DNA of 41,825 nt from Bacillota bacterium (GCA_050259635.1 JBLNBA010000001.1:137329-179153); one strand, 5' to 3'. Shown: positions 17,395-36,300, counted from the stretch's first letter. Translations and numbers: made by a program. The notes: generated from the letters alone by a model not told the origin.

Positions 17395-19206
17395 ATGGCT
17401 AAACTCTGGCAAATCGCGGAGCCGCCGCATGACTCCTTTCTTGGCGTACTGGCCGATATCGATCCGGTAGTTTCGAGTATCCTCTGGAACCGCGGTTTGC
17501 GAACTCCGGAATCCGTCAGGGCTTTTCTGGATGATACGATCGAACCTTCCCAATGTTTAGATTTAGCCGGAGACGGCTCCTTGTCTTTTTTTGACCCTTT
17601 CCTTTTCCGTGACATGTCTGCGGCAGTGGCTTTGATCATCAAACATATCAAGGAGGGTAATAAGATTGTTGTTTATGGCGATTATGATGCGGATGGAGTC
17701 ACCGCTTCGACCGTCTTGTCCGAGGCGCTTCGCACCTTGAAAGCAGACGTGGAAGTTTATCTGCCCGATCGCGTGAGCGAAGGCTATGGCCTTAACAAGC
17801 CGGCCTTGGATCAGATCAGAGAGCAGGGCGCCAAATTGGTGATTACGGTCGATAACGGCATCCGCAATAAGGATGAAGCGGCTTATGCTAAAGGATTGGG
17901 GCTGGATGTTATAATCACGGATCACCATGTCTTGCCGGAGAAGCGCGAAGATATGCCACCTTGCCTGGTTATCGATCCGGCGGATCCGGAGGATAGTTAT
18001 CCTTGGCCATTCCTGGCTGGCGTAGGCGTGGCCTATAAGCTGGTTTGTGCTTTGCTTAGCGAATCCAGGCTATCTCCCGTCCAAAAGAAAGCTATATCCG
18101 AGAGAGCCCTCGATCTTGTCGCCGTGGGGACAATCGCCGATATGGTGAACCTCATGGGAGAGAATCGTTGGCTCGTGAAACGAGGGTTGGCCGTGCTCAA
18201 CCAGAACCGCCGTCCCGGTCTCAAGGCCTTATTCAAGACGGCGAAGATCGCTCTGGACAAACCCTTGGAAGCTTGGAATGTCGGGTGGCAGCTTGGTCCG
18301 CGCTTGAATGCGGCTAGCCGCCTGGGACATGCGAATAGCGCTTTTGCCTTGATCGGCGCTTCTTCGGATGAAGAGGCCGAGAGCCTGGCGGCCGAACTTA
18401 ATAAGCGCAATCAGGAACGGCAACAAATTACCGAAGAGATTATAAAGCAGGTAGAAGAACAGATCGATAAGGATAATCTTCCTCCGCTCATCATTGGCGT
18501 CTGCCAAGAAGGGCAGTCGTGGAATGAAGGCGTGGTCGGCTTGGTATCCGGTAAGATTTGCGAGAAATATCACCGCCCTACTTTAGTAATCACCCGTATC
18601 TGCGAAGAACCGGATGAAGAAGGAGCATCCAAATGCGGCTTTAAGGGATCTGGACGATCAGTCGAAGGCTTTAACCTTATCGAAGCCGTAGAAGAATGCG
18701 CTGAGTTCCTGGATAAGTTTGGCGGCCATCCCATGGCCTGCGGCTTCTCCCTGGAAAGCGAAGAGCGATTGGAACGTTTCCGGGAAAAGATGCTTTCCCT
18801 TGCTGCCTCCAAATTGACAGCCGAGATTTTAGCCGCGAAATTACGTCTCGATGCTATGCTTCCGTTTTCCAAGATAACCCTAAAACTGAATGAGGAAATC
18901 GGATCATTGGCTCCTTTCGGACAGAATAACCAGCAACCGCGTTTTGCCAGCTCGAATCTGCGTATCGACGACTTGGTATATATGGGGAGTGAAAAACAGC
19001 ACATAAAGCTGCGCTTGTCTTCTTTGGAAGACAGGACCGCCCCTTCTTTCTGGGGCGTAGCATTTTCCTGTGCCAGTTCTTTTTCCGGACTTAAGGCCGG
19101 GGACGCGATTGATTTGGCATATTATTTGGATATCAACGCTTTTAACGGCCGACGTGAGGTCCAGTTGAAGATCATTGACTGGCATCCGGCGGCGGAACGA
19201 ATATGA
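17395..19206 (+). CDS. recJ: ssDNA-specific exonuclease RecJ
   Basis: GDYDADG, ITVDNGI, ITDHH, LAGVGVAYK, GTIADMV, PRLNAASRL, GSGRS, FGGHPMACG and APFGQNN. Confidence 0.96.
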   Translation: MAKLWQIAEPPHDSFLGVLADIDPVVSSILWNRGLRTPESVRAFLDDTIEPSQCLDLAGDGSLSFFDPFLFRDMSAAVALIIKHIKEGNKIVVYGDYDADGVTASTVLSEALRTLKADVEVYLPDRVSEGYGLNKPALDQIREQGAKLVITVDNGIRNKDEAAYAKGLGLDVIITDHHVLPEKREDMPPCLVIDPADPEDSYPWPFLAGVGVAYKLVCALLSESRLSPVQKKAISERALDLVAVGTIADMVNLMGENRWLVKRGLAVLNQNRRPGLKALFKTAKIALDKPLEAWNVGWQLGPRLNAASRLGHANSAFALIGASSDEEAESLAAELNKRNQERQQITEEIIKQVEEQIDKDNLPPLIIGVCQEGQSWNEGVVGLVSGKICEKYHRPTLVITRICEEPDEEGASKCGFKGSGRSVEGFNLIEAVEECAEFLDKFGGHPMACGFSLESEERLERFREKMLSLAASKLTAEILAAKLRLDAMLPFSKITLKLNEEIGSLAPFGQNNQQPRFASSNLRIDDLVYMGSEKQHIKLRLSSLEDRTAPSFWGVAFSCASSFSGLKAGDAIDLAYYLDINAFNGRREVQLKIIDWHPAAERI

Positions 19207-19607
19207 AAATCATCATCCATTCAGACGGAGGGGCACGAGGTAATCCCGGACCGGCAGGCATAGGGGCTATTCTCCATGATGAAAAGGGGACGGTCTTGGC
19301 GGAGATTTCCGCTTATCTGGGTGAAACAACGAATAATCAGGCGGAATATAAGGCCTTGATCGCCGGCTTGCAGAAAGCTAACGCCCTAGGAGCGGATGCC
19401 GTGGAATGTTTTTTGGATAGCGAGCTGGCCGTTAAACAGATAAACCGGGTATACAAAGTGAAGAATCGCGAACTGGCGCCTCTTTTCTTGGATGTCTGCA
19501 ATCTGCTCACTAAGTTCAAATCATATCGTTTCTGCCATGTACCGAGAGAACTGAATAAAGAGGCAGACAGGTTGGCTAACGAGGCGATGGACCGGAGGGA
19601 AAATTGA
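19203..19607 (+). CDS. rnhA: Ribonuclease HI (archaeal/actinobacterial-like type)
   Basis: DGGARGNPGPAGIG, TNNQAEY, DSEL and HVPRELNKEADRLAN. Confidence 0.93.
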   Translation: MKIIIHSDGGARGNPGPAGIGAILHDEKGTVLAEISAYLGETTNNQAEYKALIAGLQKANALGADAVECFLDSELAVKQINRVYKVKNRELAPLFLDVCNLLTKFKSYRFCHVPRELNKEADRLANEAMDRREN

Positions 19608-19627
19608 TAACATTATCATTTTGGAAT

Positions 19628-19656
19628 AAAAAAACCGTCCTGTGGGACGGTTTTTT
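19628..19656. terminator. Bidirectional terminator between convergent rnhA and the minus-strand operon
   Basis: AAAAAAACCGTCC-TGTG-GGACGGTTTTTT, with A and T tracts on either side. Confidence 0.88.
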
Positions 19657-19670
19657 GTATAAACGAGCGG

Positions 19671-20960
19671 TCAATATCTTTTGAAAAATAGTTCGCCGCC
19701 AGAATGACGGTTTGCGGATGACTTGATATCATTACTATCTAGGTCATTCGATATGCAGTTACCCGGCTGGCGTCCTGAGGTCCCGCCATGGCAATCACCA
19801 AACTTGCCATTTCCCATGTAAATAAATACGTGACCAAAGCCGGATTTGCTATTTGACGGTGCCCAGCCGATGAGATCTCCGGGTTTAAGGCTGGAGACCT
19901 GGCCATTCCAGGCGGATTGGTCCTTGAAGATGCCGGCGGTATTTTGGTCTGCCGTCTTTCCGTTGGCACACTTGATCGCGAAGGAAGCAAAGCCGGAACA
20001 GTCATTGAATACCGTCCCGTTGGGACCGGTCTTTCCTCTCTGCGGATTATTATAGGTCGTCTTGCCTTTGGAATTATTGATAATTTCTTCGATGCTCGTA
20101 TTATTACAGTCTACTCCTATAATCCCGCTGATACCTGCCATATCCAAGGCTACTGCGGTCGTACCTTCACTGTCCGGCTCGATATTTATGCGCTCGATCG
20201 AATTCAGGGCAAGGGCATTTAATTTTATGAGATCAGGATTAATCTGTTTGAGGATCGTATAGGTTCCAACCAGGATTATCAATCCAGTGACACTACCGAT
20301 GATCAGGCTTTTAGCTTTCGTTATCCGAGAGGCATCTCCCGCTGATACCAGCCACATGACGCCTCCAGCCATGAGCATGATAGCGGCTAAAATACCTCCA
20401 ATTCCCAGGCCATATCTGTAAATACCATTGATGTATTGGGAGATCCACGGAATCTTGCAGGTAGTGGGGTTCTCGGGGTCATCGCAGGTTGCTTCCGTAA
20501 AGTGCACGGTATTGATGGGGATGGAAAGTTCCGGCATGATCCAGGCGGCTGGTTGATAGACGAAATTGGATGGACAGCAGCATTTTGTCTGGACGTAATT
20601 AGGTTTTTTAGCCAAGTCGCAATCCGTACCTTCTCTCTCAGATGCAAAGCATTCAGGGGCAGATACTTGGCCGTAGGGATTGGCGTTGGGGGATGAAGCC
20701 CAGCGGCAAGAGTATTGAGATTGAGATCCAGTATTTGCTGCGCAGCAACAAGGAATGTTGGCATTTTCTCCATAAGGGCTCGGTTTAGGTAGCCCCTGGC
20801 AATTGCTTGGATATGCCTCGGTTTTCCCTACTGCAGAGCAAGTTAGGGATTCAGGTGAGGCCGGCCGTTCCCATCCGCAATTCGAATATGTGGTTTCGGC
20901 CGAAACGCCGCCGGCGATGATGAATGAGATAGCAAAGATGATGGCGATAATGCGCTTCAT
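19671..20960 (-). CDS. Signal peptide + two Cys-rich repeats + VirB2/TrbC-like pilin + NlpC/P60 cysteine peptidase
   Basis: Signal MKRIIAIIFAISFIIAGGVSA; pilin-like two-TM core GILAAIMLMAGGVMWLVSAGDASRITKAKSLIIGSVTGLII..INP; C-terminal NDCSGF, LKPGDLI and GHVFIYMGNGKFGDCH. Confidence 0.82.
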   Translation of the reverse strand: MKRIIAIIFAISFIIAGGVSAETTYSNCGWERPASPESLTCSAVGKTEAYPSNCQGLPKPSPYGENANIPCCCAANTGSQSQYSCRWASSPNANPYGQVSAPECFASEREGTDCDLAKKPNYVQTKCCCPSNFVYQPAAWIMPELSIPINTVHFTEATCDDPENPTTCKIPWISQYINGIYRYGLGIGGILAAIMLMAGGVMWLVSAGDASRITKAKSLIIGSVTGLIILVGTYTILKQINPDLIKLNALALNSIERINIEPDSEGTTAVALDMAGISGIIGVDCNNTSIEEIINNSKGKTTYNNPQRGKTGPNGTVFNDCSGFASFAIKCANGKTADQNTAGIFKDQSAWNGQVSSLKPGDLIGWAPSNSKSGFGHVFIYMGNGKFGDCHGGTSGRQPGNCISNDLDSNDIKSSANRHSGGELFFKRY

Positions 20961-21799
20961 AATTTATATCGCTTGATATTTTCCTCAACTATTTTTTTGA
21001 GCTTGTCGTCCATCTTATTGGGAAATCGTCCTTGGAGGGAAATGTAATCATTCAAAGGGAGGAGCATGGTCTTACTTGAGAGGGAGGAGGATACCAATTT
21101 ACCGTCCTGAAATTCCACCAAGGGATACAGGCCGGTTTGGACCGCCAGTTTAGCGGCCCTCACCGCTTCATCGGTCTTTATCTTCCACCCTGGTATGCAA
21201 GGGGAAAGGATCTGGATGTAGCTCGGTCCTGGAGTGGCCAGGGCTCTTTTTACTTTGCGAACAATATCTTCGGGATAGCCTGCGGCCGTCTGGGCGACAT
21301 AAGGCACTTGGTGGGCTAAGGCGATAGCCATCATGTCCTTCTTTATTTCGTTGGCTCCGGCCGGGGTAGTAGCAGTGAGGGCGCCGGGAGGGGTTGAACC
21401 TGAAGATTGGAAGCCGGTATTGGAATATCCTTCCGTGTCGTAGCAGATATATAAGACCTCGTCGCCTCTTTCAAACAGGCCACTGATAAATCCGATGCCG
21501 ATATCAAAAGTTGCTCCATCTCCCGCTTGGACTATAACCTTGGTCTTTTTCTTGTTTTTCCTTAAGGCCGCGCGCACTCCGGCGGCGACAGCAGCGGAAT
21601 TTTCAAATAAGGAATGCATCCAAGGGAGGCGCCAAACGCTCTGAGGGTATGAAGTGGTGGTCACCTCCAAACAACCGGTGGCATTGATGATGATCGTATC
21701 CTTATCCAAAGCACGCATGACCGATTGGACAGCTGAAAGCTGCCCGCAGCCGGCGCAGGCGTTATGTCCCGAAGCTATCTTTTTATCATTGTCTAGCAT
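20957..21799 (-). CDS. porB: Pyruvate (2-oxoacid):ferredoxin oxidoreductase beta subunit
   Basis: GHNACAGCG, ATGCLEV, FENSAA, TPP motif GDG..YDTEGYSNTG and SPCIPGW. Confidence 0.93.
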   Translation of the reverse strand: MLDNDKKIASGHNACAGCGQLSAVQSVMRALDKDTIIINATGCLEVTTTSYPQSVWRLPWMHSLFENSAAVAAGVRAALRKNKKKTKVIVQAGDGATFDIGIGFISGLFERGDEVLYICYDTEGYSNTGFQSSGSTPPGALTATTPAGANEIKKDMMAIALAHQVPYVAQTAAGYPEDIVRKVKRALATPGPSYIQILSPCIPGWKIKTDEAVRAAKLAVQTGLYPLVEFQDGKLVSSSLSSKTMLLPLNDYISLQGRFPNKMDDKLKKIVEENIKRYKL

Positions 21800-21800
21800 G

Positions 21801-22838
21801 TCATTTTTCTTTATTGCAGCATCTTAGGTTCTTGTCCTCATTGCATCCGCGTCCCAATCTGTCTACCCAAAGGTTATGGTTATTTACCTGGTCACATTTT
21901 CCTTCTTTTACGCCGTTTCCTTCCGCATAACAGATACTTCCTCCGCGGTCTCCGCAAGGCTCCCCTTCCTCTCCCAAGCCGTAATAGCTGATTTCGGTGT
22001 AGCAATAGCATTGCGGCCCGCAGCCGCTACCATCTGTCTGGCCGATGCAGGCCTCCTCGCAGCTTACACCTTTCAGGGTTTGTTTCTCGATACAGTATCC
22101 TTTTGTTTTAGCGACAAAATGATACTCCGTTTCATCATAGGAAGAATAGGGGATAGTATTCCCGGCGGCGCAGAAGGAATTATATACCGGGATGCACTTC
22201 TTATGGTTCCTCTCCTCATATTCGCAGCAGGACCAGTAATCTTCGTTTAGGCACTTAAAGCTATTTTCTACTTCATCATTGCCGTTCGTTTTCGGCATGC
22301 TGGTGCATTTAGTGTCCGGAGGGCAGACGGATGAATCCTCCGGACAGACGAATCCGCCATTGGTATTCCTTTGCATCGGTACCAAGCCTTTTGTTTCACT
22401 ACAGCAGTAATGGAGGCCTTCGATCGCAGAAATATCCGTGCCGCTCATATCGAGCAGGGCGGGGTTTATTGTTTTTAACATCATCCATGAGCCGACGAGA
22501 AGCAGAAGGCCGACGATACTGCCGGTTATCATCTTCTTGGCCCTTCCGACCATGTCGCTGCTGCCGGCGGAAGTGAGCCAGAGGACGCCCCCGGCCATTA
22601 TCATTATTGCCGCTAAGATTCCTCCAACCCCTAATCCCCAATCATAAAAGCCCTTTATCATCTGGCCGATGTAGCCGGTACTGCCAAAAGTGAGTTCGGT
22701 GGAAGTCCCCATTCCCGGGAGACCCACCTGCGATTTGAAGACGAGGGGATCTTTTATGCTAGGCAAGGCATGAGCGTTTTGAATTCTTGCCAGCAAGCTA
22801 AGAGACAGAGCAATGAAAGGGAGGAAGATTTTTTTCAT
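21801..22838 (-). CDS. Signal peptide + VirB2/TrbC-like pilin + Cys-rich C-terminal domain
   Basis: AHA cleavage-like site; GILAAIMIMAGGVLWLTSAGSSDMVGRAKKMITGSIVGLLL..INP; 22 Cys counted by hand in the C-terminal ~205 aa. Confidence 0.8.
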   Translation of the reverse strand: MKKIFLPFIALSLSLLARIQNAHALPSIKDPLVFKSQVGLPGMGTSTELTFGSTGYIGQMIKGFYDWGLGVGGILAAIMIMAGGVLWLTSAGSSDMVGRAKKMITGSIVGLLLLVGSWMMLKTINPALLDMSGTDISAIEGLHYCCSETKGLVPMQRNTNGGFVCPEDSSVCPPDTKCTSMPKTNGNDEVENSFKCLNEDYWSCCEYEERNHKKCIPVYNSFCAAGNTIPYSSYDETEYHFVAKTKGYCIEKQTLKGVSCEEACIGQTDGSGCGPQCYCYTEISYYGLGEEGEPCGDRGGSICYAEGNGVKEGKCDQVNNHNLWVDRLGRGCNEDKNLRCCNKEK

Positions 22839-22839
22839 A

Positions 22840-23970
22840 TTACCAATACCGCTGGCCTGTCCGGCCGGCGTTCTTTATAATATCGCTTATTATCCGGCGG
22901 CTCACATCCCGGCCGCCGAGCCCGACAATATTGCCATTAATATCCTTGCCCCCCGCGGCGACTGATACTTCCAGGTATAGAGGTCCGGCGGAGCCGGCGG
23001 AGGCTGCTTTTTCAATAACGGCTATCCTATCCGCTTTAGCGATGAAACGGGTAACATCCTTCGTTGGGAAGGGGCGGAAGCTGCGGATCTTGAGAAGGCC
23101 AGCCGTCTTATCTTCTTTCAGCTTCTCCTTGATCGTTCCGCACATCGAACCCATGGCGATAAGGAGCGTCTTGGGTGCGGCGGGTCCGGTGTATTCCACT
23201 AGGCCGTTATCAAAACGGGGTTTAATCGCGCAGTCGGAGGGGAAGATCTTTTTCCATTCAAGATAGAGGCGGCTGATTTCTGCTTGGGCGGCCTTCATAT
23301 CCTCATCCAGCTTTTTTCTCTCCAACCAATAATGTTCAGGGCCGAAAAATCCGCCCAGGGTGGCGGGGTGTTTGGGGTCCAAATAAGTTCCCTTGGCCGG
23401 ACGGTATGCCGCCAAGAAGCGCTTTATCGTTTTCTTATCGGGGATAGAAACTTTTTCAAAGGAGTGGGTGAGGATGAAGCCGTCCACATTGACAGCCGCG
23501 GGAATGCCAAGAGATTCGGCTAGGCGGCAGGCGATGACGTGCCAGTCACAGGCTTCTTGATGGTTTTCGGCGAAGAACATCAGCCAGCCGGCATCGCGCA
23601 TCGCCATGGCATCGCTGTGGTCATTCCAAATGTTTATCGGTCCCCCCACTGCCCGGTTGGCTACGGTCATGAGAAGAGGGAGGCGCAAGCCCGCCGCGTT
23701 ATACAGTACTTCCAGCATGAGCAACAACCCTTGGGAGCTGGTTGCGGTATAGGTTCGACTACCGGCGGCACTGGCTCCAAGGACGATCGAGGCGGCGGCC
23801 GCTTCGCTTTCCGCCAGGACGTATTCGTAATCTTCTCGGCCATCGGCTTTGAAACGGGCCAGGTCCTCAACGATATGTGTCTGAGGCGTGATGGGGTATG
23901 CGGAAACAACCTCGGGGCTGAGGTTGGCGACGGTGAGGGCGATGGCGCGAGATCCTTCTAAGAAAGCCAT
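22840..23970 (-). CDS. porA: Pyruvate (2-oxoacid):ferredoxin oxidoreductase alpha subunit
   Basis: AYPITPQT, ESE, TATSSQGL, NRAVGGPINIWNDHSD, DGFILTH, RSFRPFP and GLGGRDV. Confidence 0.94.
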   Translation of the reverse strand: MAFLEGSRAIALTVANLSPEVVSAYPITPQTHIVEDLARFKADGREDYEYVLAESEAAAASIVLGASAAGSRTYTATSSQGLLLMLEVLYNAAGLRLPLLMTVANRAVGGPINIWNDHSDAMAMRDAGWLMFFAENHQEACDWHVIACRLAESLGIPAAVNVDGFILTHSFEKVSIPDKKTIKRFLAAYRPAKGTYLDPKHPATLGGFFGPEHYWLERKKLDEDMKAAQAEISRLYLEWKKIFPSDCAIKPRFDNGLVEYTGPAAPKTLLIAMGSMCGTIKEKLKEDKTAGLLKIRSFRPFPTKDVTRFIAKADRIAVIEKAASAGSAGPLYLEVSVAAGGKDINGNIVGLGGRDVSRRIISDIIKNAGRTGQRYW

Positions 23971-23971
23971 A

Positions 23972-24244
23972 TCATTCCTGTTCCATCTTTATGGCGCCAA
24001 ATGGGCATTCAGCCGCACAAAGGCCACAGCCTTTGCAGTAGTCGTAATCCGGGAAGGCTTTGAGCTTATTAAGTTTATCCATCTTCATGTAAATGCAGGA
24101 ATCCGGGCAGAGCTTGGAACACAGGGAGCAGCCGGTGCAGGTTGCGTGATCGAAAATCGGTTTTTGGCTGCGCCAAAATCCCGTTTTATTGCCCACGGAT
24201 GAACCCGGTTCTATTTTTGGCTGTATATCATTTCTAACTTTCAT
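23972..24244 (-). CDS. porD: Pyruvate (2-oxoacid):ferredoxin oxidoreductase delta subunit (2x[4Fe-4S])
   Basis: PGSS..NKTGFWRSQKP, CTGCSLCSKLCP and DYDYCKGCGLCAAECP. Start ATG 24244 (or 24250) overlaps the porC end. Confidence 0.92.
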   Translation of the reverse strand: MKVRNDIQPKIEPGSSVGNKTGFWRSQKPIFDHATCTGCSLCSKLCPDSCIYMKMDKLNKLKAFPDYDYCKGCGLCAAECPFGAIKMEQE

Positions 24245-24791
24245 ATTCATAGGCCGCGATAGCTGCCTGCTTATTATCCTTAATAAGTTTGTCGTTCCGG
24301 CCGGCAAAATTTTCTTCTATTGCTTTAAGAAGGGAAGGAAGGGAAATCAGGCGGCTTGAGAAGGCAAATGCTCCGGTAAGAGCCGTGTTGGCGAATGGTT
24401 TATTGAGATATCGCCGGGCGATATCCGTGGCCGGTATAACGGATATGTTCTTTGCCGCAACTCCCGGCAGGATCCGCAATATCTCTTCTTTGGGGGCGGA
24501 GCTATTCACTATTATCTTGGTATTTTTCTTAATGCCCGAAACTATGGCTTCATCTCCGAGTAGGGTGCTGTCCGCTATGATGAGAAAATCAGGTTCATAG
24601 ACCTGTTCGCGGAGGACGATTGGTTGGCGGCTGATGCGGACAAAGGCCTGGATAGGGGCGCCGCTTCTTTCTACGCCGAAAGCGGGGAAGGCTTGGGCTT
24701 CATAGCCCTCGATATGGGCGGAGAGGGCCATTAGCTCCGAAGCGGTCACTATCCCTTGTCCGCCGCGTCCGTGAAGGCGTATTTCCATCAT
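24234..24791 (-). CDS. porC: Pyruvate (2-oxoacid):ferredoxin oxidoreductase gamma subunit
   Basis: EIRLHGRGGQGIVT, AFPAFGVERSGAP and NTALTGAF. Confidence 0.94.
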   Translation of the reverse strand: MMEIRLHGRGGQGIVTASELMALSAHIEGYEAQAFPAFGVERSGAPIQAFVRISRQPIVLREQVYEPDFLIIADSTLLGDEAIVSGIKKNTKIIVNSSAPKEEILRILPGVAAKNISVIPATDIARRYLNKPFANTALTGAFAFSSRLISLPSLLKAIEENFAGRNDKLIKDNKQAAIAAYEYES

Positions 24792-24795
24792 AATC

Positions 24796-25548
24796 TTATT
24801 GGGCGATTAGTCCTTCGATAACGCTTTCGAAGTTTGCTTGAGGGTACATGCCGGTCACCTTGTAATGGTTGATAAACCAGGTGGGAGTGCCGGAGAGTCC
24901 CAAGAGTTCTGCATCGGCGAAATCGTCATTTAAGCGATGCAGATATTTCTTGGAATCAAGGCAGGAATCAAAATCGACGGTATTCAGGCCCATTTCCTTG
25001 GCCAGATCTTTCATTGGTTGCTTGACGCTTTCGTCATCCAGCTGGCTGTATTGGTCTTGGCGCTCGAAGATCTTATCGTGCATTTCCCAGAATCGGTTCT
25101 GGTCGCCGGCGCAATTGGCGGCCAAAGCCAGGCTGACAGAATTATCATGCAGAGGATAATTGCGGAAGATAAAACGGACACCTTCTCCGTATTTTAAGGA
25201 TAAATCTCGCATCATCGGGGATGCTTCCTTGCAGAAAGGGCAGGCAAAGTCCGAAAACACGACAATCTGCGCCTTGGCATCGTCCGGGCCCAGGCTGAAA
25301 CTTTCCCCCCGGCCATCAATGGCAGCGGTTATCTTTTGGATTTCTCCCGCTTCGAAAGCGAGGGTTTTTTCCCGTTGATAGCTCTTTACTTGCTGGATGA
25401 AATATATCGTTCCGGCGATGAGGGCGGCGAGGGCTAGGAGACCAACCCCAACTAGGATCATCCCCCACTTTTTCCTATACCAAGGACGGAGCTTTTTGTG
25501 GTGACGTTCCTTCATTTCCAGATATTGGATGCGTTCGTCTAGGCTCAT
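24796..25548 (-). CDS. dsbA: Membrane-anchored DsbA-family thiol-disulfide oxidoreductase (BdbD-like)
   Basis: N-terminal TM segment, FSDFACPFCK (CXXC), FRNYPLH, a second Cys pair (NCAGDQ / FDSCL) and cis-Pro loop GTPTWFIN. Confidence 0.88.
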   Translation of the reverse strand: MSLDERIQYLEMKERHHKKLRPWYRKKWGMILVGVGLLALAALIAGTIYFIQQVKSYQREKTLAFEAGEIQKITAAIDGRGESFSLGPDDAKAQIVVFSDFACPFCKEASPMMRDLSLKYGEGVRFIFRNYPLHDNSVSLALAANCAGDQNRFWEMHDKIFERQDQYSQLDDESVKQPMKDLAKEMGLNTVDFDSCLDSKKYLHRLNDDFADAELLGLSGTPTWFINHYKVTGMYPQANFESVIEGLIAQ

Positions 25549-25556
25549 ATCTCTAA

Positions 25557-25585
25557 TTGAAAAAAGGCTTATTTTCCTTTATACT
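25557..25585 (+). promoter_or_regulatory. Candidate sigma70 promoter for xth-leuS-rsmA
   Basis: TTGAAA (25557-25562), 17-nt spacer, TATACT (25580-25585). Confidence 0.55.
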
Positions 25586-25608
25586 AAATGGGTATTAATA
25601 ATGATTCA

Positions 25609-25617
25609 ATTATAACA
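25609..25617 (-). promoter_or_regulatory. Candidate extended -10 promoter for the dsbA-por-pilin operon
   Basis: The minus strand reads TGtTATAAT, about 60 nt upstream of the dsbA ATG. Confidence 0.55.
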
Positions 25618-25659
25618 TAAGGCGTCTTTCGTGGCTATTTTAGAGACCTTTGCGCGTAT

Positions 25660-26418
25660 ATGAGAATATTATCATGGAATGTTAACGGTATTCGGGCTGT
25701 TTTAGCTAAGGGCTTTTCGGCTTTTCTTCAAAGGGAGCAGCCGGAGATAATCTGTTTACAGGAGATTAAGTTGGGAGAAAAGGCGATGTCTAAGGCAAAA
25801 TTGGAATTTCCTGGGTATCAGGCTTACTGGAATGGAGCCGAGAGAGCGGGTTACAGCGGAACGGCTATTTTGGTAAAGGACGGATTAGAACTTCCGGTGA
25901 CCAAGGGCCTGGGGAATCCAAAGTTTGATTCCGAGGGCCGGGTCCAGGTATTGGAACATAATGATTTTTACCTAATCAATGCCTATTTTCCCAATTCTAA
26001 CGCCGTTTTAGGGCGCTTGGGATATAAGTTGGAATTCAATGAAACCCTGATGAGCTTTGCCAAGAAATTAGAGGAAAAGAAACCGGTAATCATTACCGGT
26101 GATTTCAATGTCGCTCATGAAGAAATAGATATCGCTCGGCCGAAAGCGAATGAAGGGGCTGCCGGGTTCACTAAGGAGGAAAGAACTTGGTTCGGCGATT
26201 TGTTGGGGCGGGGATTCATCGATACCTTTCGGGATATTTACCCGGCCAAGATCCAATATTCTTGGTGGAGCTTCCGGGCTGGCGCCAGGCCTAGGAATGT
26301 CGGATGGCGCATTGACTATTTCGTTATTTCAGCTAAACTTAGAAAAAAGGTTAAAGATTCTTTCATCCTTGACCAGGTACAGGGTTCCGATCATGCACCT
26401 ATCGGGATCGAAATATAA
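25660..26418 (+). CDS. xth: Exodeoxyribonuclease III / AP endonuclease
   Basis: SWNVNGIRA, LQEIK, GYSGTA, GDFNVAH, YSWWS, GWRIDY and GSDHAP. Confidence 0.96.
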   Translation: MRILSWNVNGIRAVLAKGFSAFLQREQPEIICLQEIKLGEKAMSKAKLEFPGYQAYWNGAERAGYSGTAILVKDGLELPVTKGLGNPKFDSEGRVQVLEHNDFYLINAYFPNSNAVLGRLGYKLEFNETLMSFAKKLEEKKPVIITGDFNVAHEEIDIARPKANEGAAGFTKEERTWFGDLLGRGFIDTFRDIYPAKIQYSWWSFRAGARPRNVGWRIDYFVISAKLRKKVKDSFILDQVQGSDHAPIGIEI

Positions 26419-26423
26419 GGGAT

Positions 26424-28850
26424 ATGTACGATCATCGCGCCATTGAAGAAAAATGGAGAAAAAACTGGCAGGAGTCAGGGCTTTATCGTACCCGCGAGGA
26501 AGCTGGCAAGCCAAAATTCTACATTCTCGACATGTTTCCTTATCCCTCGGGAGAAGGGCTGCATGTCGGTCATCCGAAGGGTTATATTGCCACCGACATC
26601 ATCGCTCGCATGCACATGATGAAAGGCGAGAATGTGCTCCACCCTATGGGCTGGGATGCTTTTGGATTGCCGGCCGAAAATTTCGCGCTTAAGAACAAGG
26701 TGCATCCGCGGGTGGCCGTGGAAAAGAACATTAAGCGTTATAAGGAGCAGCTTAGCATCCTTGGTTTTTCTTATGATTGGGAAAGGGAGATCAATACTAC
26801 CGACCCAGACTATTACCGTTGGACCCAATGGATCTTCCTGCAGATGTGGAAGAAGGGGTTGGCTTATGAATCATACGCACCAATTAATTGGTGTCCATCT
26901 TGCAAGACGGGGCTGGCTAACGAGGATGTGGAAGATGGCCGCTGCGAACGCTGCGGCACCTTAGTGGAACAGCGGCCGATGCGCCAATGGGTGCTGAAGA
27001 TTACGGATTACGCGGACCGTCTCTTATATGACCTTGATAAATTACCGCAGTGGGATGAGGCGGTGAAAGAAATGCAGCGCAATTGGATAGGTCGCAGCGA
27101 AGGGACCGATGCCGTCTTTAGGGTTAAGGGAATGGATTCTGTTATCAAGGTTTTCACTACCAGGATGGATACTATTTTTGGTTGCACTTATGTAGTGATA
27201 GCCCCGGAAAACGGCCTTATCCAAGAGCTCAAGGGCGCAATTAAGAATCTGGCGGAAGTGGAAGAATATATCCAAGTCTCTAAGAATAAGACGGATTTGC
27301 AGCGGACGGATCTTAATAAAGAGAAGACTGGCGTTATCCTGGAAGGCGTTACTGCCATCAATCCTTTTACCGGCGGGGAGATCCCGGTTTTTGCCGCCGA
27401 TTACGTTCTCAATGCCTATGGTACCGGCGCTGTCATGGCTGTCCCTGCTCATGATGTGCGTGATTTTGAATTCGCAAAGCGCCACGGAATGCCGATAAAG
27501 CGGGTGGTGGCTCCCTTGGAAGGGAAGGATGATAACGATGCCGCTTTTACGGATGACGGCCGCTTGCATGACTCTGGCCCTTACGATGGCCTTCTATCCG
27601 CCGAAGCCCGAAAACAGATGGCTGCCTGGTTGGAGGAGCAAGACTTGGGTGTGAGGCGGGTGAATTACAAGATTAAAGACTGGGTGTATTCCCGGCAGCG
27701 TTATTGGGGGGAGCCCATTCCCTTAATACATTGCGAAAAGTGCGGAGTAGTTGGAGTGCCTGAGGAGCAGCTGCCGGTCCGCTTGCCGGAAGTCGAGAGT
27801 TACGAACCTACCGGAACGGGAGAATCTCCTTTGGCAGCGATCGAAGATTGGGTCAATACTACCTGTCCGGTTTGCGGCGGCCCGGCGAAGCGCGAAACCA
27901 ATACCATGCCACAATGGGGCGGTTCTTGCTGGTACTATTTGCGTTATCTTGATCCCAAGAATACGGAAGCCCTGGTTGCAAAAGCGAAAGATGCTTATTG
28001 GTCCCCGGTCGACCTTTATGTCGGGGGAGCGGAGCATGCCACGAGGCATCTTATTTATGCTCGTTTTTGGCACAAATTCCTTTATGACATCGGCTCCGTT
28101 TCTTATGACGAGCCATTTACCAAGTTGCAGCATGTAGGGTTGATAATGGGTGAAGACGGAAGGAAGATGAGCAAGCGCTGGGGGAATGTGATCAACCCGG
28201 ATAGCATGGCGGAACGCTTCGGCGCCGATGCTTTGCGGGTCTATGAGATGTTCATGGGGCCTTTCGACCAGGCGGCTGCTTGGAATACGAATGGTTTGTC
28301 CGGAACTCGCCGGTTCTTGGAAAAGATCGATAACCTCTGCCAGAGAGAAGACACCCCGGTCAAGGCAGACAAGAAAATCACTTCTCTCTTGCACAAGACG
28401 GTGAAGAAGGTGGGTGAAGATATCGATAATTTCCGCTTCAACACGGCTGTTTCCGCTTTGATGATCCTGGTAAACGAGCTGACAGAATTTTATTCCCAGA
28501 ATGCTGCCTGGCCGGTGTCCAAATCAGATCTGGGCGCGCTATTGCGCCTTACCGCGCCTTTTGCTCCTCATCTGATGGAGGAGCTCTGGGAGCGCCTGGG
28601 ATTTGAAGGCAGTATTTTCCAGTCTTCTTGGCCGGTCTGCGATTTGTCTCTAATAAAGGATGAGGTAGTTTCGTATATTATCCAAGTGAACGGACGTTTG
28701 CGCGGAAATGTGGAGATGCCCGCTGAGGCTTCTGAGGAGGAAGTTGTTAGGGCGGCTATGGCCGAACCGACAGTTGCCAAATGGCTGGAAGACGGAGAAG
28801 TGAAGAAACGGATCTTTGTTCAGGGACGTCTTATTAATTTTGTAATCTGA
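26424..28850 (+). CDS. leuS: Leucine--tRNA ligase
   Basis: MFPYPSGEGLHVGH (HIGH motif), GWDAFGLPAEN, editing domain FTTR..GTGAVMAVPAHD, SRQRYWGEPIP, KMSKR and QVNGRLR. Confidence 0.98.
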   Translation: MYDHRAIEEKWRKNWQESGLYRTREEAGKPKFYILDMFPYPSGEGLHVGHPKGYIATDIIARMHMMKGENVLHPMGWDAFGLPAENFALKNKVHPRVAVEKNIKRYKEQLSILGFSYDWEREINTTDPDYYRWTQWIFLQMWKKGLAYESYAPINWCPSCKTGLANEDVEDGRCERCGTLVEQRPMRQWVLKITDYADRLLYDLDKLPQWDEAVKEMQRNWIGRSEGTDAVFRVKGMDSVIKVFTTRMDTIFGCTYVVIAPENGLIQELKGAIKNLAEVEEYIQVSKNKTDLQRTDLNKEKTGVILEGVTAINPFTGGEIPVFAADYVLNAYGTGAVMAVPAHDVRDFEFAKRHGMPIKRVVAPLEGKDDNDAAFTDDGRLHDSGPYDGLLSAEARKQMAAWLEEQDLGVRRVNYKIKDWVYSRQRYWGEPIPLIHCEKCGVVGVPEEQLPVRLPEVESYEPTGTGESPLAAIEDWVNTTCPVCGGPAKRETNTMPQWGGSCWYYLRYLDPKNTEALVAKAKDAYWSPVDLYVGGAEHATRHLIYARFWHKFLYDIGSVSYDEPFTKLQHVGLIMGEDGRKMSKRWGNVINPDSMAERFGADALRVYEMFMGPFDQAAAWNTNGLSGTRRFLEKIDNLCQREDTPVKADKKITSLLHKTVKKVGEDIDNFRFNTAVSALMILVNELTEFYSQNAAWPVSKSDLGALLRLTAPFAPHLMEELWERLGFEGSIFQSSWPVCDLSLIKDEVVSYIIQVNGRLRGNVEMPAEASEEEVVRAAMAEPTVAKWLEDGEVKKRIFVQGRLINFVI

Positions 28851-30395: not shown

Positions 30396-33300
30396 ATGAA
30401 TAAGAAAGCCTCCATTGCTTCTAACCGGCGTCGTTTTGGGACAGCCGGAATTTTGCTATTGCTGCTATCCGCCACTTTCTTGGCCGCACCTCAGCCGGCA
30501 CATGCTCAGGTGGATTTCAACCAGGCGATAAACAATGTCCTTACTCCTATCTGGAATTTTGTAAAGAAGGCTTATGAAAAAGGAGGAGCGGCGGCGCTGC
30601 AGAAAGCGACAAGATCCGCATTGAATAAGATCGCCTATGATACGGCGACCTATCTAGGATCCGGCAGGGAGGGACAGAAGCCGATGTTCGTAACCCAGGA
30701 CTGGGGAGATTACTTGGCCCAGATCGGCGATGAGGCCGCCGGAGAGTTTATTGAGGGGGCTGTCAATAATTGGAATAAGAGTGCGATAGATAAGAAGAAT
30801 GCCGAGAAGAAAGATGTGGCGTGTCAGCAGACTTATGATGACTGTGTCATCGGTTGCTCGGGTTTGATCCCAGAATTGGGCGACCAGAATCCTGGGGCTT
30901 GTGAAAGCGATTGCTTGAATAATTATAAAAAATGCAAAAGCGATGCCGTTGTTTCTGGAAGCCTGGGCACCGTGAGTGCCGGAACATCGAGCAATGGCTA
31001 TGCGAATGTCTGTTCGCCTTCTTCCTTGCAGGCGAAACTCAAGATCGCCATGGGCCTGGTGAATGAGCAGCGCCCCAAAGCCCCTAATTGTACGGCCTCC
31101 GAATTGGTCGGACGTTGGGGCGAAGCGATTAACGACCTTAATTTTTTGGACGATTTTAAGAATATTTTCAGTCCGACCGCGAATGATCTCGGCATATATT
31201 TTACCTTGCGCACGGAAATGATGAATGACGTGAATCTAAAGGCGGAGCAGGCGAATAACAAATTGGTCGCCGATGGGGGATGGTTAGACATGCATGATAT
31301 CGCTGGTAACCTTGTCGGGTTGCCCGGAGACGCAGAACTTGATTCTGAGATAGCTAAACAGGGGTATATCGATAACATGTCGCAGTTTACGGGCGATGCC
31401 TTGATCGATGCGGCTAATGTCTTTCTGAATCAATTGGCTTTGAGCGCTTATAAGAACTGGACCACTAAAAAGATTGCCAATAATCCTTCGGAGGGCAGCT
31501 TAGCTCAGTATTCGAGCGATCCCAATATTCAGTATGGGGAAAAGATTGTCAAAGAGAGCGCGGCTGAGATCATCGAGCCCAATTTCAGCGTCCGGGCCGA
31601 CTACGATATCCTTTCTTCTCTCACGATGTGCCGCGATCGGAGCAATCCCGGAGCGACAGACTGCGTTATCGATGAAAAGCTGATGCAAGGCATCAGTGAA
31701 AAGAAGACGGTGGCGGAAGCCTTGAAAGAAGGGGTTCTCCATCGTGATTGGCAGGTGACCAAAGATTTCCGGGAAGGCGCCTATAACCTAAGGAACTTGC
31801 AGATCATGCGGAAATACCGCATCGTGCCCATGGGCTGGGAGGTGGCGGCCGCTTCTGGCCGCGAAGCCACCTTGGGCGACCTCGTATCCTGCTATAGCGA
31901 TAGTGACCAGTATAACGAATACTCTTCCAGTTTCGATGTCCGGAACCAGGGCTGGTGCCGTAACCTCATCGATCCCAATTGGGTGTTGAAAGCGCCAATG
32001 AATTATTGCGCTAAGCAGGGGTATGGCGCACAGATTTTGGATATAAGCTTGGTACCAGAAGCCGGATTGGATGGCAAGATGCAGGATAGGGTGCAGATTA
32101 CCCGGGCGGATAATTATTGCGCCGATGAGCAGAGCTGCATCAAGGAAAAGGAAGACGGGAGCTGCGAAGCCTATGGCTATTGCCAATCGGAACGGCGCAC
32201 TTGGTCTTTCGGCTCAAAGTCCTGTTCACCCGTCAATAATACTTGTACTTCTTTTATCAATTCGACCAGCGGACAGCGTGTCGCTTATCTGGAAAATACT
32301 CTAGATTACGGCGATTGCACGGCAGATTCCGCGGGCTGCAAGATCTATTCAGTGTTCGGCACCTATGCCACTTCTACCGGCACTATTTCTTGGTCCGATA
32401 ACGAGGCGGATCTCATGCATTTCAATAATCGCCTGTCGGCCTGTTCGGCGGCGGATGAGGGCTGTAAGGAAATGATGCGGGTCAAGCCGGGCTGGGGTTC
32501 CAACCTGATTACGGGCGCCGGTTTCGACCAGGACGCCGTGGGAGACCAAATGGTGGACGGGAAGATAAATAATTATTGGACATTTTGGTCCGATGGCACG
32601 AAGTCCGGACGGATAATTGATGCATCTGAAGTGGACGCCAATTCTTCCGGCAAGGCGATCCTCATGGAGTCGCTTTCATCGACCGCCAGCTCTTCTGTCG
32701 CCTTGCATTCAAATAATGCGAATTCCCTTATCCCTGCTAATTTGAATAACTTAAGCGAAGAGACCTTCACTTTGAGCGCCGATGTCTATCTCATCGAAGG
32801 CGATAAGGTGCATGTGGTCCTAGGCAGCGATTACCAAGCTTTTTCCGAGACTCGCGATAAGAATGTCTGGCGCCATATTTCCATCACCAGGAACCTGAGC
32901 GATAAGCCTCTTTCTGAATTTTCTTTTTCCGTCAACGCCTATAGCTCCACTAACCGCACCCAGGTGGCCGTTCGCAACCTGAAGTTGGAGATGACACCCT
33001 GGGATTCCGGTTTCAGCCTGTATGGATCATATAAGGCCTACGAGAAGCTCATTCCGCCTTATCTGGCTGCCTCTTGCTATATAAATGCTAGTGAGAATAA
33101 CCCGGACTTCCGTCTGAAACCCGGGGCGCCTTCTATTTGTACGGAATTCGCTCGTCGTTGCAACCGGGAGGAGGTGGGCTGCGAGAAATATACGGAGAAA
33201 GCCACCGGCTTTTCCGTGGCCGCCCAGGCCGTTTCTTCGGATTACTGCGACCAGGGCTGCAATGGTTATGATCTGTATGTCGCTCGGGGCAATTATTTCT

Positions 33301-36300
33301 TTTCACCGCAAGCAGATAAGCTTATTCCCTCGAGCAGCCGCAAATGCGGGGCGGAAGCGGCCGGGTGCGCCGAGTTTACCAATCTCGATGAAGCTTCAGC
33401 CGGAGGAGAGAGCCGTGAATATTACACTCAACTCAAGCAGTGCGTGAAGCCGAGCAGCGAATGCGGCGATTTCTATACCTGGATGGGTTCCGAAGAGACG
33501 GGTTACCAGCTGAGGTCCTTGAGCCTGAAGAAGGATGCTTCCGGTCTGCCGGCCGTGACCGCCGACGATTCTTTGGCTTGCAGCGAGGCGATTTATAATC
33601 TTCCTGCCGGAGCTCCCGGCTTTAATCCGGATTGTCGCCAGTATTATAACAAGCAAGGAAAGATCGCTTATCATCTCTCAGCTTCTACGGTTACATGTTC
33701 CGAGAACTGCCATCCATACCGCCTTACCGAGAAGAATATCGATTCGACCTTGACTCAGGCGCAGTGCACCGGTTCCGGCCGTTCCTGGAACGCTACCGCC
33801 GGCGTCTGCTATTCCTGTCTCAATGGCGGAACCTGGGATGCGGGACAGCAATCCTGCATTTACCAAGCTATCCCCGGAGAGGGGAAGCGATGTTCCGCTG
33901 CCCAGAATGGGTGCCGGGAATATAATGGCAGCTTGGGCAACAATACTAAGCTGGTTATCGCGCAGGATTTCAATGATGGCGTCGATGGCTGGGAGGGGAA
34001 TTGCGAGGACTCCGCTTTGAGCTCGCAGGAAGCAAGTTCCAATAACTCCCGCTCTCTTTTCTATGACCGGAGCTCCAACAGCTCGGGACAGATCGTCATG
34101 CCTAAGTGCAATAACACCGGCAATACCTCTTGGCTGGATAGGATCATGGGCAGCGCCAATGCGGCACCGCTATCGTATATCAAGAAAGTATTAGGGGAGA
34201 GGCTTCAGAGCGGCAAAGCCTATAGTGTAAAATTCACCGCTTCCGCCGCCTCTGATGCCCAGGTATATGCCGCGGCAATGAATAGCCGGGGAGAGTTGGC
34301 GTATTTCAACGCCTCGGAAGGCAATGACACCGGCGCCTATACCGTGCCGGGCGACGGCGAGTGGCGCACCTATGAGCTCAATCTGCCTGCTTTGGAACAC
34401 CAGACCGATGCGGATGAGGCTTTGATCTTTGTGTCCAGCGCCGACTTGCATCTGGATAATCTCGTGTTAACGGAAATTACCGATAGATACTACCTGATCA
34501 AGGGCAGCAGCGATATTCCTGATGTCTGCTACTACGACATGCTCGATCAGTTCCGCGGAGAAGATTATAATCTCGGTTGTTCGCTGTATAAGGATAGGGC
34601 TAATAAAGATCATTATTTGAGACAGTTCAGCAAACTCTGCCAAGAATCTGCCGTGGGCTGCGAACTCGTGGTCGATACCGCCGGATCCGATAACCCCCGC
34701 CCGGAAATCTGGAAGGATGAAAATGGAAACGGATCTTGCGATGCCGGAGAAAATGATTGTGTCAGCGTTCCCGGAGACCGTTTCTTCTATGCGATTTACG
34801 ATAACTCCAAGCGTTGCAACGGCGCCGATGAGGGCTGCAGCCGCATGGGAGAATCCGTTTCTTCCGGCGATGCATGGGGGGATGCGTTCAAGCGCAATAA
34901 TCCTGATGATTACGGCCAATCATTGTGCGGGGAGACTGATGCCGGCTGTGAAGCCTGGAAATCTGCCAGCGACGGCAGCCTGCAGTATTTCAAGAATCCG
35001 GGGAGCAATGCCTGTGTTTACCGTACGAGCATTAATCCGGAAAAACCGGGCAAGGCTTGGTATAAGGTGCCGGTAATGCGCTGCGACTTTAATAATAATG
35101 GATCCATCGATTCGACCGCCGAAAGGAATGGGCAAGTATGCTCGAGCGCTTCAGATTGTGCCGCCAATCGTCCTTGTATCGTGGATAATACTGATTACGA
35201 ATGCCCGGTAAGCTATTTCAAGACTATCGGATTGGGAGGCGCCGGACAGCAAGTTCCGGTTCCTAGCGATGCGGCCGGCCTTTGCGATGCCGTTCAATCC
35301 GGCTGCAGTGAATATATCGATCCGGTAAGCGACTTTTCATCTAACGTGATCGTTAATCCGACTCACGAAGGGAATACGGGTTGGGGCGGCGATCCAAATG
35401 GGTGGCAGGTTCAGGATGTGGCGATTAATCCCAATACCTTATATATCTTCTCTATCAATGCCGTAGGCTCTACTGAGCCGGCCGAAGAAGTGAGACTGGA
35501 ATTTCCGGCAGGTGTAAGCATCTTGGGTGAAAATAATGTCCTCAGCGCTACGACAACGATGACCCTCGCCATTCCGCAAGGACAGCGAAGCGTCAGGCAC
35601 GTCTTCCATTCCCGGGGCAATTCTATCGCGAAGGTTTTCCGGAGGAACGGAAGCTTCGAGGTAGTGCTTAAGGTGGCCTTGGTGGATTACCAGTTGGAGC
35701 AAAGCCTGGATAAATCTTCTTGCAACGGCTTGTATAATCTTGATGAGGGCTGCGTCCTCTTCAATGAGAGGACGGTAGACGGTGGCAGCGGCCTTAAAGC
35801 TCTTACTGGCGGCTGGAACGCGGCGGCAAGTCAGAAAGGAAAGGCGCCGCAGAAATGCACTGCCGGCAATTGCACCGCTAATGCCTTGATTAAGGTGCGC
35901 CCGGACCGGGTTTGCGCTTCTTGGCTGGATTGCCTGACCTATATCCAAGATCCGGTAACCAATGAAAGGACGTGTTATGCCCTGGGAGAATGCAATCGCT
36001 TGGGAGACAATAATGAGTGCTCTAATTTCGTTAGCCGCAGCGCGACGGCATTAAAGGGGGATAATCCGACTATTTCCAAGATCACCGGTTATTCGGTCGT
36101 TGACCGTTATAACCTTGCCGGTATGAAAGAAGTGGGGCTTGATACCGCCGCTCATTATGCTTTTGAGGAAGCCAGCCCGACGCTAAATTGCCGGATGAAG
36201 GGGATGGCCGGGACGCCTTGCGTATATGACAAAGGCTTAGTCGCAGATAGTATAATAGATAAGCCATCCGGAGCGCCTACAGACTATCCGGCCGAAGGGA

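Follow-up and report, generated by a model that had tools for sequence, protein, structure and literature searches.

Genes for the subunits of one enzyme are normally kept together in an uninterrupted operon, and four-subunit porCDAB/porGDAB operons for pyruvate:ferredoxin oxidoreductase (PFOR) are known from Thermotoga, Pyrococcus and Helicobacter. The locus described here departs from that rule. It lies in a 41,825-nt stretch of DNA (the window, to which plain coordinates refer) from the genome of a tiny Falkowbacteria-like bacterium of the Patescibacteria, a genome of 797.8 kb in four contigs that is rated 100% complete; the Falkowbacteria are placed within the Parcubacteria group in NCBI. 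A block on the minus strand (19671-25548) carries the four por genes, headed by a dsbA-like gene and interleaved with two genes for cysteine-rich fusion proteins built on a pilin-type hairpin. Why an operon of central metabolism should be split in this way by genes for predicted surface proteins is the question that the locus raises. An earlier reading of the sequence (the original prediction) saw in it a candidate 'attach, breach and feed' unit of an epibiont, in which disulfide-rich attachment or wall-cutting proteins and their oxidase are tied to fermentation. We find that the layout is real, ancient and spread through the class, and that the block probably holds two separable modules in one inherited transcription unit, not one machine.

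The block comprises seven open reading frames (ORFs) in the order dsbA-porC-porD-porA-pilin1-porB-pilin2(NlpC/P60), and ORF calls and Pfam families agree with the genes, order and boundaries originally proposed. The junctions were also re-read as described: from 5′ to 3′, dsbA and porC stand 4 nt apart, porC and porD overlap by 17 nt, three gaps of 1 nt each follow, and at the last junction (ATGA) the start of pilin2 overlaps the stop codon of porB. The 17-nt overlap assumes that porD begins at the ATG at 24250, and in alignments with porD orthologues this form is matched from residue 1 onward. The lone promoter candidate upstream and the terminator at the end were located as well. The former is an extended -10 promoter-like site (25609-25637, minus strand; TAGCCA, 17 nt, TG-TATAAT; 10/12 matches, a consensus match only) in the 111-nt divergent intergenic region that dsbA has in common with xth; the latter is an intrinsic terminator hairpin followed by a T run, 3′ of pilin2 (19628-19656, minus strand; -17.9 kcal/mol, z = -4.9), and none of 200 shuffles folded equally well. 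Promoter-like consensus sites occur across the region at chance level (8 versus 7.1 expected from shuffles), and within the block the matches to promoter (8 versus 7.1) and terminator (14 versus 8.7 ± 3.1) consensus do not rise above shuffles. The remaining long ORFs of the window are all on the plus strand, and minus-strand ORFs of at least 100 amino acids outside the block overlap longer plus-strand ORFs, in keeping with the description of the block as the only one on the minus strand. The block looks like a single compact co-directional transcription unit, the genes of which would be co-transcribed.

The por genes encode a predicted normal cytoplasmic four-subunit pyruvate/2-oxoacid:ferredoxin oxidoreductase, for which PFOR is used as the usual annotation, the substrate (pyruvate or another 2-oxoacid) not being fixed by sequence alone. 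The matches of PorC (gamma subunit, 24234-24791, 185 amino acids; POR, PF01558, 2e-40), PorA (alpha subunit, 22840-23970, 376 amino acids; POR_N 7.5e-69 and PFOR_II 1.1e-18; PF01855 and PF17147) and PorB (beta subunit, thiamine pyrophosphate-binding, 20957-21799, 280 amino acids; TPP_enzyme_C, PF02775, 4.5e-18) are all above the curated Pfam cut-offs. PorD (delta subunit, 23972-24250, 92 amino acids; Fer4 2.6e-12) contains two [4Fe-4S] motifs of the CxxCxxCxxxCP type, CTGCSLCSKLCP and CKGCGLCAAECP, and in PorB the GDG...N motif and the cysteine ligands are visible by eye.

The dsbA-like gene at the head of the block (24796-25548) encodes a protein of 250 amino acids that resembles the membrane-anchored thiol-disulfide oxidoreductases DsbA, BdbD and ScsC (Thioredoxin_4 4.9e-25, DSBA 2.2e-17; PF13462 89.1 bits, PF01323 63.9 bits). 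Its nearest solved structures are those of ScsC (4gxz, 3.6e-11) and BdbD (3eu3, 6.3e-11); its active-site motif CPFC (C103-C106) aligns with CPYC of ScsC and CPSC of BdbD, and the GTP (cis-Pro) loop aligns too. The N-terminal transmembrane segment is preceded by basic residues, a topology that would place the protein outside the cytoplasm with its N-terminus as anchor. The same genome encodes a second, distant DsbA paralogue (G000:C4:345661-346386; 25% identity over 176 amino acids). The search for DsbB or VKOR partners suggested with the original prediction was carried out, and neither these nor DsbD/CcdA (PF07884, PF02600, PF02683) had a match in the 100%-complete genome; the controls were positive in known genomes.

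The two pilin-fusion proteins stand out by their cysteine content, which is 6.4% in pilin1 and 4.4% in pilin2 against 0.9% for the genome overall. In pilin1 (21801-22838; 345 amino acids, 22 Cys) a signal peptide precedes a VirB2-like hairpin of two helices (about residues 55-124), which is followed by a beta-rich ectodomain; across orthologues this ectodomain keeps its cysteine framework while its sequence is highly variable. An AlphaFold2 model built with 32 orthologues (pLDDT 75, pTM 0.41) has a confident hairpin, with helices at 55-89 and 94-124 (pLDDT about 90), and beta-rich Cys domains. The ectodomain has no Pfam match and no Foldseek match in the PDB at E <= 0.001, and the ESM Atlas held no usable match for pilin1, the Atlas's own model reaching a pTM of 0.26. 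In pilin2 (19671-20960; 429 amino acids, 19 Cys) the signal peptide leads into an N-terminal ectodomain rich in cysteine; a VirB2-like hairpin comes next (about residues 172-253), and an NlpC/P60 domain (PF00877, 25.9 bits versus a cut-off of 23) forms the C-terminus. The cysteine of NDCSGF and the histidine of GHVFIY, which we take to be its catalytic residues, are present, and the domain is a predicted peptidoglycan endopeptidase with wall-hydrolase activity. The hairpins match the type IV secretion system (T4SS) family T4SS_pilin (PF18895): in a scan of the block pilin1 scored 27.5 bits, over the cut-off of 26.6, and pilin2 24.2 bits, below it, and in the whole-genome scan the two scored 31.2 and 29.1 bits, both above the cut-off.

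The hairpin is widespread. With the pilin2 hairpin as query, relatives of 300-800 amino acids were found in 106 of the 151 genomes of a class-wide sample (completeness at least 85%, evenly sampled), most of them PFOR-less, PorA being present in 26 of the 151. In the host genome 10 ORFs match a hairpin hidden Markov model (HMM), four of them Cys-rich fusions that include two Ig-domain giants of 890 and 1936 amino acids; a Pfam scan gave 13 T4SS_pilin matches, and an array of small pilins is encoded as well. Small pilin genes elsewhere in this genome lie among unrelated genes, as in the order SMC, SBP, pilin, HTH, methyltransferase. No T4SS genes are present in the block, and a lone VirB4-like (AAA_10) candidate lies on another contig, C3. 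In this lineage the hairpin seems to be a membrane anchor of general use for surface proteins rich in disulfides, and the pilin hairpins of the block may serve as membrane anchor only, as in the 890- and 1936-amino-acid proteins. Those two belong to a run of three consecutive giant Cys-rich proteins (G000:C2:82111-93683; L195:2111-13680) of 890, 1936 and 1009 amino acids with 27, 125 and 50 Cys; both have a T4SS_pilin hairpin at the start together with Big_5, TIG and fn3 domains, an architecture that looks like a pilin-anchored adhesin type. Nearer by, 5 kb from the operon on the plus strand (30396-38429), is a giant ORF of 2677 amino acids with 96 Cys and an N-terminal hydrophobic segment, which is likely a further surface protein and client of DsbA.

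The synteny survey of porA-porB neighbourhoods that the original prediction had proposed was made at several taxonomic depths. In the order, represented by 41 genomes of the genus, family and order with the host genome counted, PorA is present in 39, and about 5 kb on either side of porA was fetched in 31 relatives. One or two pilin genes lie between porA and porB in 29 of these 31 loci (L060 among them by tblastn only); the remaining two end early, L030 after porA-pilin and L045 after porA, and porA and porB are contiguous in none. The unit begins with dsbA in all 28 loci that extend far enough. An extra pilin gene follows porB in 18 loci, with the 4-nt porB/pilin overlap in at least 11 of these. 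At four related loci, L089, L093, L099 and L105, xth stands directly before porA; dsbA-porC-porD is missing from that place and porA-pilin-porB-pilin is kept. Among 19 further Patescibacteria loci from public genomes, left after seven others had been dropped as duplicates of loci in the set, a pilin separates porA from porB in 16, three are cut by a contig end and none is contiguous. The pilins after porB, 30 in all, carry varied hydrolase domains by Pfam (NlpC/P60 in 7, VanY in 6, M15 in 3, and C39_2, Amidase_5, 3D and SLT in 1 each), which suggests a conserved role in which one catalytic head can be exchanged for another.

The layout extends beyond the order, so that the original alternative of neutral shuffling in one genome or one narrow clade does not describe what is seen. 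Twenty por loci from other orders of the class were examined: six have the full dsbA-porC-porD-porA-pilin-porB order, two have porA-pilin without dsbA, eight have porA and porB adjacent (four of these still headed by dsbA), and the rest have other inserts. Such inserts include a UDG-like gene, a 310-amino-acid HExxH protein and a four-helix-bundle protein in L071 (5183-8333), three consecutive HExxH paralogues and a 282-amino-acid membrane protein in L072 (5108-10196), and a 205-amino-acid membrane protein in L063; the por operon seems unusually permissive to insertions in these orders. Taken across L071, L072 and L062 (4455-5947), the interrupting genes encode HExxH paralogues of 310-357 amino acids, proteins of about 120 amino acids, and UDG-like and NIF3-like proteins, and by eye we take the proteins of about 120 amino acids to resemble the four-helix-bundle proteins of 23S rRNA intervening sequences. 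Outside the class the usual uninterrupted alpha-beta pair is met, both in other Patescibacteria and beyond them. PorA was present in 30 of 401 genomes sampled from the phylum; among 20 loci of other classes none has a pilin, 11 have porA and porB adjacent and one has dsbA nearby, and none of 54 por loci from outside the Patescibacteria has a pilin or dsbA.

Whether the parts of the block depend on one another can be judged from their history. When PorA sequences are placed in a tree (100 rows, 97 different), every locus linked to dsbA or a pilin belongs to one clade of 72 rows (SH-aLRT 84), the early branches of which (L064, L070) already carry dsbA and pilin; the simplest reading is that the interleaving arose a single time close to the root of the class and was lost in places afterwards. 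Yet the same envelope genes also occur without por. In 13 PFOR-less genomes of the class, whose loci were picked by coordinate comparison, a gene for a Cys-rich pilin fusion (12-47 Cys) comes next after dsbA in 13 of 13, the gap between the two being -4 to +23 nt in 10. No por remnants were found in these 13 loci (best tblastn E-value 0.19). The gene directly downstream is uvrA in 7 of the 13, and a divergent SBP_bac_5 gene lies upstream in 10; in PFOR-bearing loci of other orders the same SBP_bac_5 gene is present in 11 of 20 and uvrA lies downstream in 11 of 20. The SBP_bac_5 proteins (L185:1673-3562, L074:1974-3800 and homologues) are membrane-anchored and of an oligopeptide- or murein-peptide type, and their genes are divergent from dsbA in PFOR-bearing and PFOR-less loci alike. 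One locus is seen in three states: SBP5|dsbA-porCDA-pilin-porB-uvrA, SBP5|dsbA-pilin-uvrA and SBP5|dsbA-porCDAB-uvrA, dsbA-porCDAB without a pilin being present at four loci. On a UvrA tree of 20 of these loci the por state requires three changes, of which well-supported branches force only one.

Since dsbA-pilin occurs without por, and dsbA-por without pilin, neither PFOR nor the envelope genes depend on the other, and the partners that stay constant are dsbA and the pilin fusion. From gene order and protein architecture, the working pair would be DsbA and the pilin-anchored disulfide-rich surface proteins or wall hydrolases, presumably as its substrates, and PFOR most likely shares only a transcript with them. 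One part of the tie drawn in the original prediction accordingly holds, namely the link of DsbA with Cys-rich pilins, which is kept in the 13 PFOR-less loci; an obligate tie to PFOR does not, as the modules occur apart. As an obligate unit, 'attach, breach and feed' does not hold, given that the modules are separable, that unrelated genes lie in or beside por, and that DsbA homologues are present in 144 of the 151 class genomes against 26 for PorA. On these counts the presence of DsbA was also rejected as a correlate of PFOR.

How the two probable modules would operate can be outlined as follows. One transcript, running from the promoter-like site to the terminator, would carry both. PorCDAB would assemble in the cytoplasm and convert pyruvate to acetyl-CoA with reduction of ferredoxin. 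DsbA, held by its N-terminal helix with the CPFC motif outside, would introduce disulfides into the ectodomains of pilin1 and pilin2 during their export, and the hairpins would keep both proteins in the membrane or possibly let both enter a VirB2-type fibre. Pilin1 would present its fast-evolving ectodomain, and the NlpC/P60 head of pilin2 would cut peptidoglycan, either the cell's own or that of a host. The interleaving would have arisen once near the base of the class-level clade and been inherited since, and it was most likely retained because rearrangement within the tightly coupled por genes is costly.

Several points weigh against this reading of two modules in one inherited unit. In three runs of the sample labelled as metatranscriptomes, no read fell on 18800-26600, and these runs provide no test of transcription. 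The direction in which DsbA acts is an assumption, because the host genome has no known re-oxidising partner. The polarity of change at the locus (por lost or inserted) is read from the PorA tree together with a weakly resolved UvrA tree. ORFs in the surveyed loci were called and labelled by an in-house script (tblastn and blastp with the seven proteins of the window) and a home-built hairpin HMM, although Pfam later confirmed most pilin labels (62 of 65 genes between porA and porB, and 28 of 30 after porB). The flanking genes recJ-rnhA and xth-leuS are likewise conserved in the order, so that conservation at this level is not specific to the cluster; these flanks are absent in the other orders of the class. 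Finally, a layout that outlives changing flanks across orders, together with a conserved overlap, exceeds what pure neutrality needs, and selection for co-expression is possible.

Other explanations of the layout can be set against the one preferred here. The chance that it is an assembly artefact or a chance arrangement is negligible, with nothing seen in its favour: the same order is present in independent assemblies, at the 29 relatives' loci and the 16 further loci, by which misassembly and a single-genome accident are excluded, and contigs in Logan from a DNA run, possibly of the source sample, span the dsbA/porC, porD/porA and porB/pilin2 junctions, if fragmentarily and at a depth of 1-4. 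Selection for co-regulation, which would couple the synthesis of adhesin-like and wall-cutting proteins, and of their oxidase, tightly to how much pyruvate is fermented, or in another form would use membrane insertion of three proteins to tether the mRNA and PFOR synthesis at the membrane, is unlikely but plausible. It would account for the persistence of the layout in orders with different flanking genes, for the 1-nt gaps and overlaps at the junctions with the ATGA overlap conserved, for a pilin copy number between porA and porB that varies from 1 to 2 at a constant position, and for the divergent gene for an oligopeptide-type solute-binding protein upstream of dsbA in other orders. It fits poorly with modules that occur separately (dsbA-pilin lacking por in 13 genomes, dsbA-por lacking a pilin at four loci), with the presence of unrelated genes inside the array or joined to it (uvrA and genes for UDG-like, four-helix-bundle and HExxH proteins), and with the small pilin genes of the host genome, which also lie among unrelated genes. 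That PFOR has the pilin-like proteins as structural partners, such as tethers to the membrane, is scarcely credible; the position of their gene between porA and porB is all that speaks for it, whereas what the hairpin is predicted to expose to the cytoplasm is a loop of about 15 residues, the large domains would be extracytoplasmic in view of their many cysteines and preceding signal peptide, and pilin-free PFOR operons occur within the same PorA clade.

A last group of explanations concerns redox chemistry. The direct link between PFOR and DsbA that was raised as a speculation at the outset would have PFOR or reduced ferredoxin help to recycle the operon's DsbA where VKOR, DsbB and CcdA are lacking, as they appear to be in the host genome by the Pfam searches given above. 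The distribution of VKOR is in its favour: found in 45 of 101 genomes of the class sample, VKOR exceeds the cut-off in none of the 41 genomes of the host's own order and in none of 15 further PFOR-bearing genomes of the class, and in the 101-genome sample it occurs in 1 of 16 PFOR-bearing versus 44 of 85 PFOR-less genomes (naive Fisher p 6.6e-4). The single genome with both (G116) has a divergent por locus of the contiguous type, and the three PFOR-less members of a PFOR-rich UvrA clade all have VKOR. The near-exclusion of PFOR and VKOR is only suggestive, however, because significance is not reached once phylogeny is taken into account: only 7 well-supported independent contrasts are available on a UvrA tree of 101 rows, with VKOR changing in the opposite direction in about 4, in the same direction in 0 and showing no difference in about 3 (median p 0.125), and UvrA is an imperfect species-tree proxy, with paralogues, G103 on a very long branch and an 836-amino-acid form in the host genome. 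A split by oxygen niche (oxygen-labile PFOR as opposed to quinone-dependent VKOR) fits the exclusion as well as a redox link does, and 7 of the 13 PFOR-less dsbA-pilin genomes also lack VKOR, which the other 6 have. Moreover, PFOR yields a low-potential reductant and a DsbA oxidase needs an oxidant, so that the potentials run contrary to the proposal. The operon has no gene for an electron carrier in the membrane, and the DsbA domain would lie outside the cytoplasm; the pilin alignments show no conserved cysteine in the hairpin, and DsbD/CcdA was not found in the host genome. A direct redox link is thus very improbable. A broader proposal is that in anaerobic PFOR lineages lacking VKOR, DsbB and CcdA the embedding is adaptive, with the por operon timing the oxidative folding and export of disulfide-rich adhesin-like and wall-cutting surface proteins, or organising them in space at the membrane, and DsbA recycled by a quinone-independent route that replaces VKOR, the PFOR-VKOR exclusion being its footprint; we regard this as quite unlikely.

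Comparison with known systems places each module separately. With the porCDAB/porGDAB operons the block shares the same four subunit families, the gamma-delta-alpha-beta order and all cofactor motifs; it differs in the dsbA-like head, in the one or two pilin fusions between porA and porB and in the one that often follows porB. VirB2-like (PF18895/PF04956) pilin genes and arrays have been described in Patescibacteria (bioRxiv 10.1101/2025.01.22.634366), and according to the accessible part of that account the por-linked proteins share their Pfam family and their core of signal peptide and hairpin. Unlike those pilins, the por-linked members are fusions of 230-830 amino acids with Cys-rich or hydrolase domains and are not beside virB4; in the part of the preprint that was accessible neither por nor DsbA is mentioned. 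The same part covers the VirB1-type peptidoglycan hydrolases of T4SSs, including SLT plus CHAP forms in monoderms (10.1101/2025.01.22.634366). These resemble the present case in having a wall-cutting domain with T4SS-type components, and the kinds of domain are similar (SLT, NlpC/P60-type, amidases), but in the block the hydrolase forms one protein with a pilin-type hairpin and a Cys-rich domain, and its gene belongs to a por operon, not to a T4SS cluster.

For the envelope module the nearest precedent comes from Actinomyces oris, in which, as far as the accessible text of PMC5478893 goes, oxidative folding of Gram-positive pilins depends on MdbA/DsbA, and VKOR and the electron transport chain re-oxidise the enzyme. 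There too a membrane-tethered DsbA-like enzyme goes with disulfide-containing surface or pilus proteins, and that system is a precedent for central redox metabolism affecting pilus assembly (PMC5478893). The pilins of A. oris are of the sortase type and those here VirB2-like, the VKOR/quinone link present there was not found here, and the DsbA-pilin pairing here is a conserved adjacent gene pair. The PamA/PamB pilus was considered and rejected as a match, being a different pilin system in the accessible part of its description (PMC13278184). No paper on the dsbA/por/pilin layout turned up in full-text searches, supplementary gene-neighbourhood tables being outside their reach, and the layout is apparently undescribed.

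The locus thus presents a central-metabolism operon that is split by genes for exported surface proteins and is stable in this form across a class of ultra-small bacteria. It shows that gene order in Patescibacteria can depart far from the rule of one operon for one function, and it is a warning against annotation by guilt of association in these genomes. It also raises the question of how disulfides are formed in quinone-less anaerobes that have DsbA but lack VKOR, DsbB and CcdA. DsbA together with a pilin-anchored Cys-rich protein or wall hydrolase emerges as a two-gene module, and as such it is a concrete candidate for machinery by which uncultured epibionts make contact with a host or remodel the envelope.

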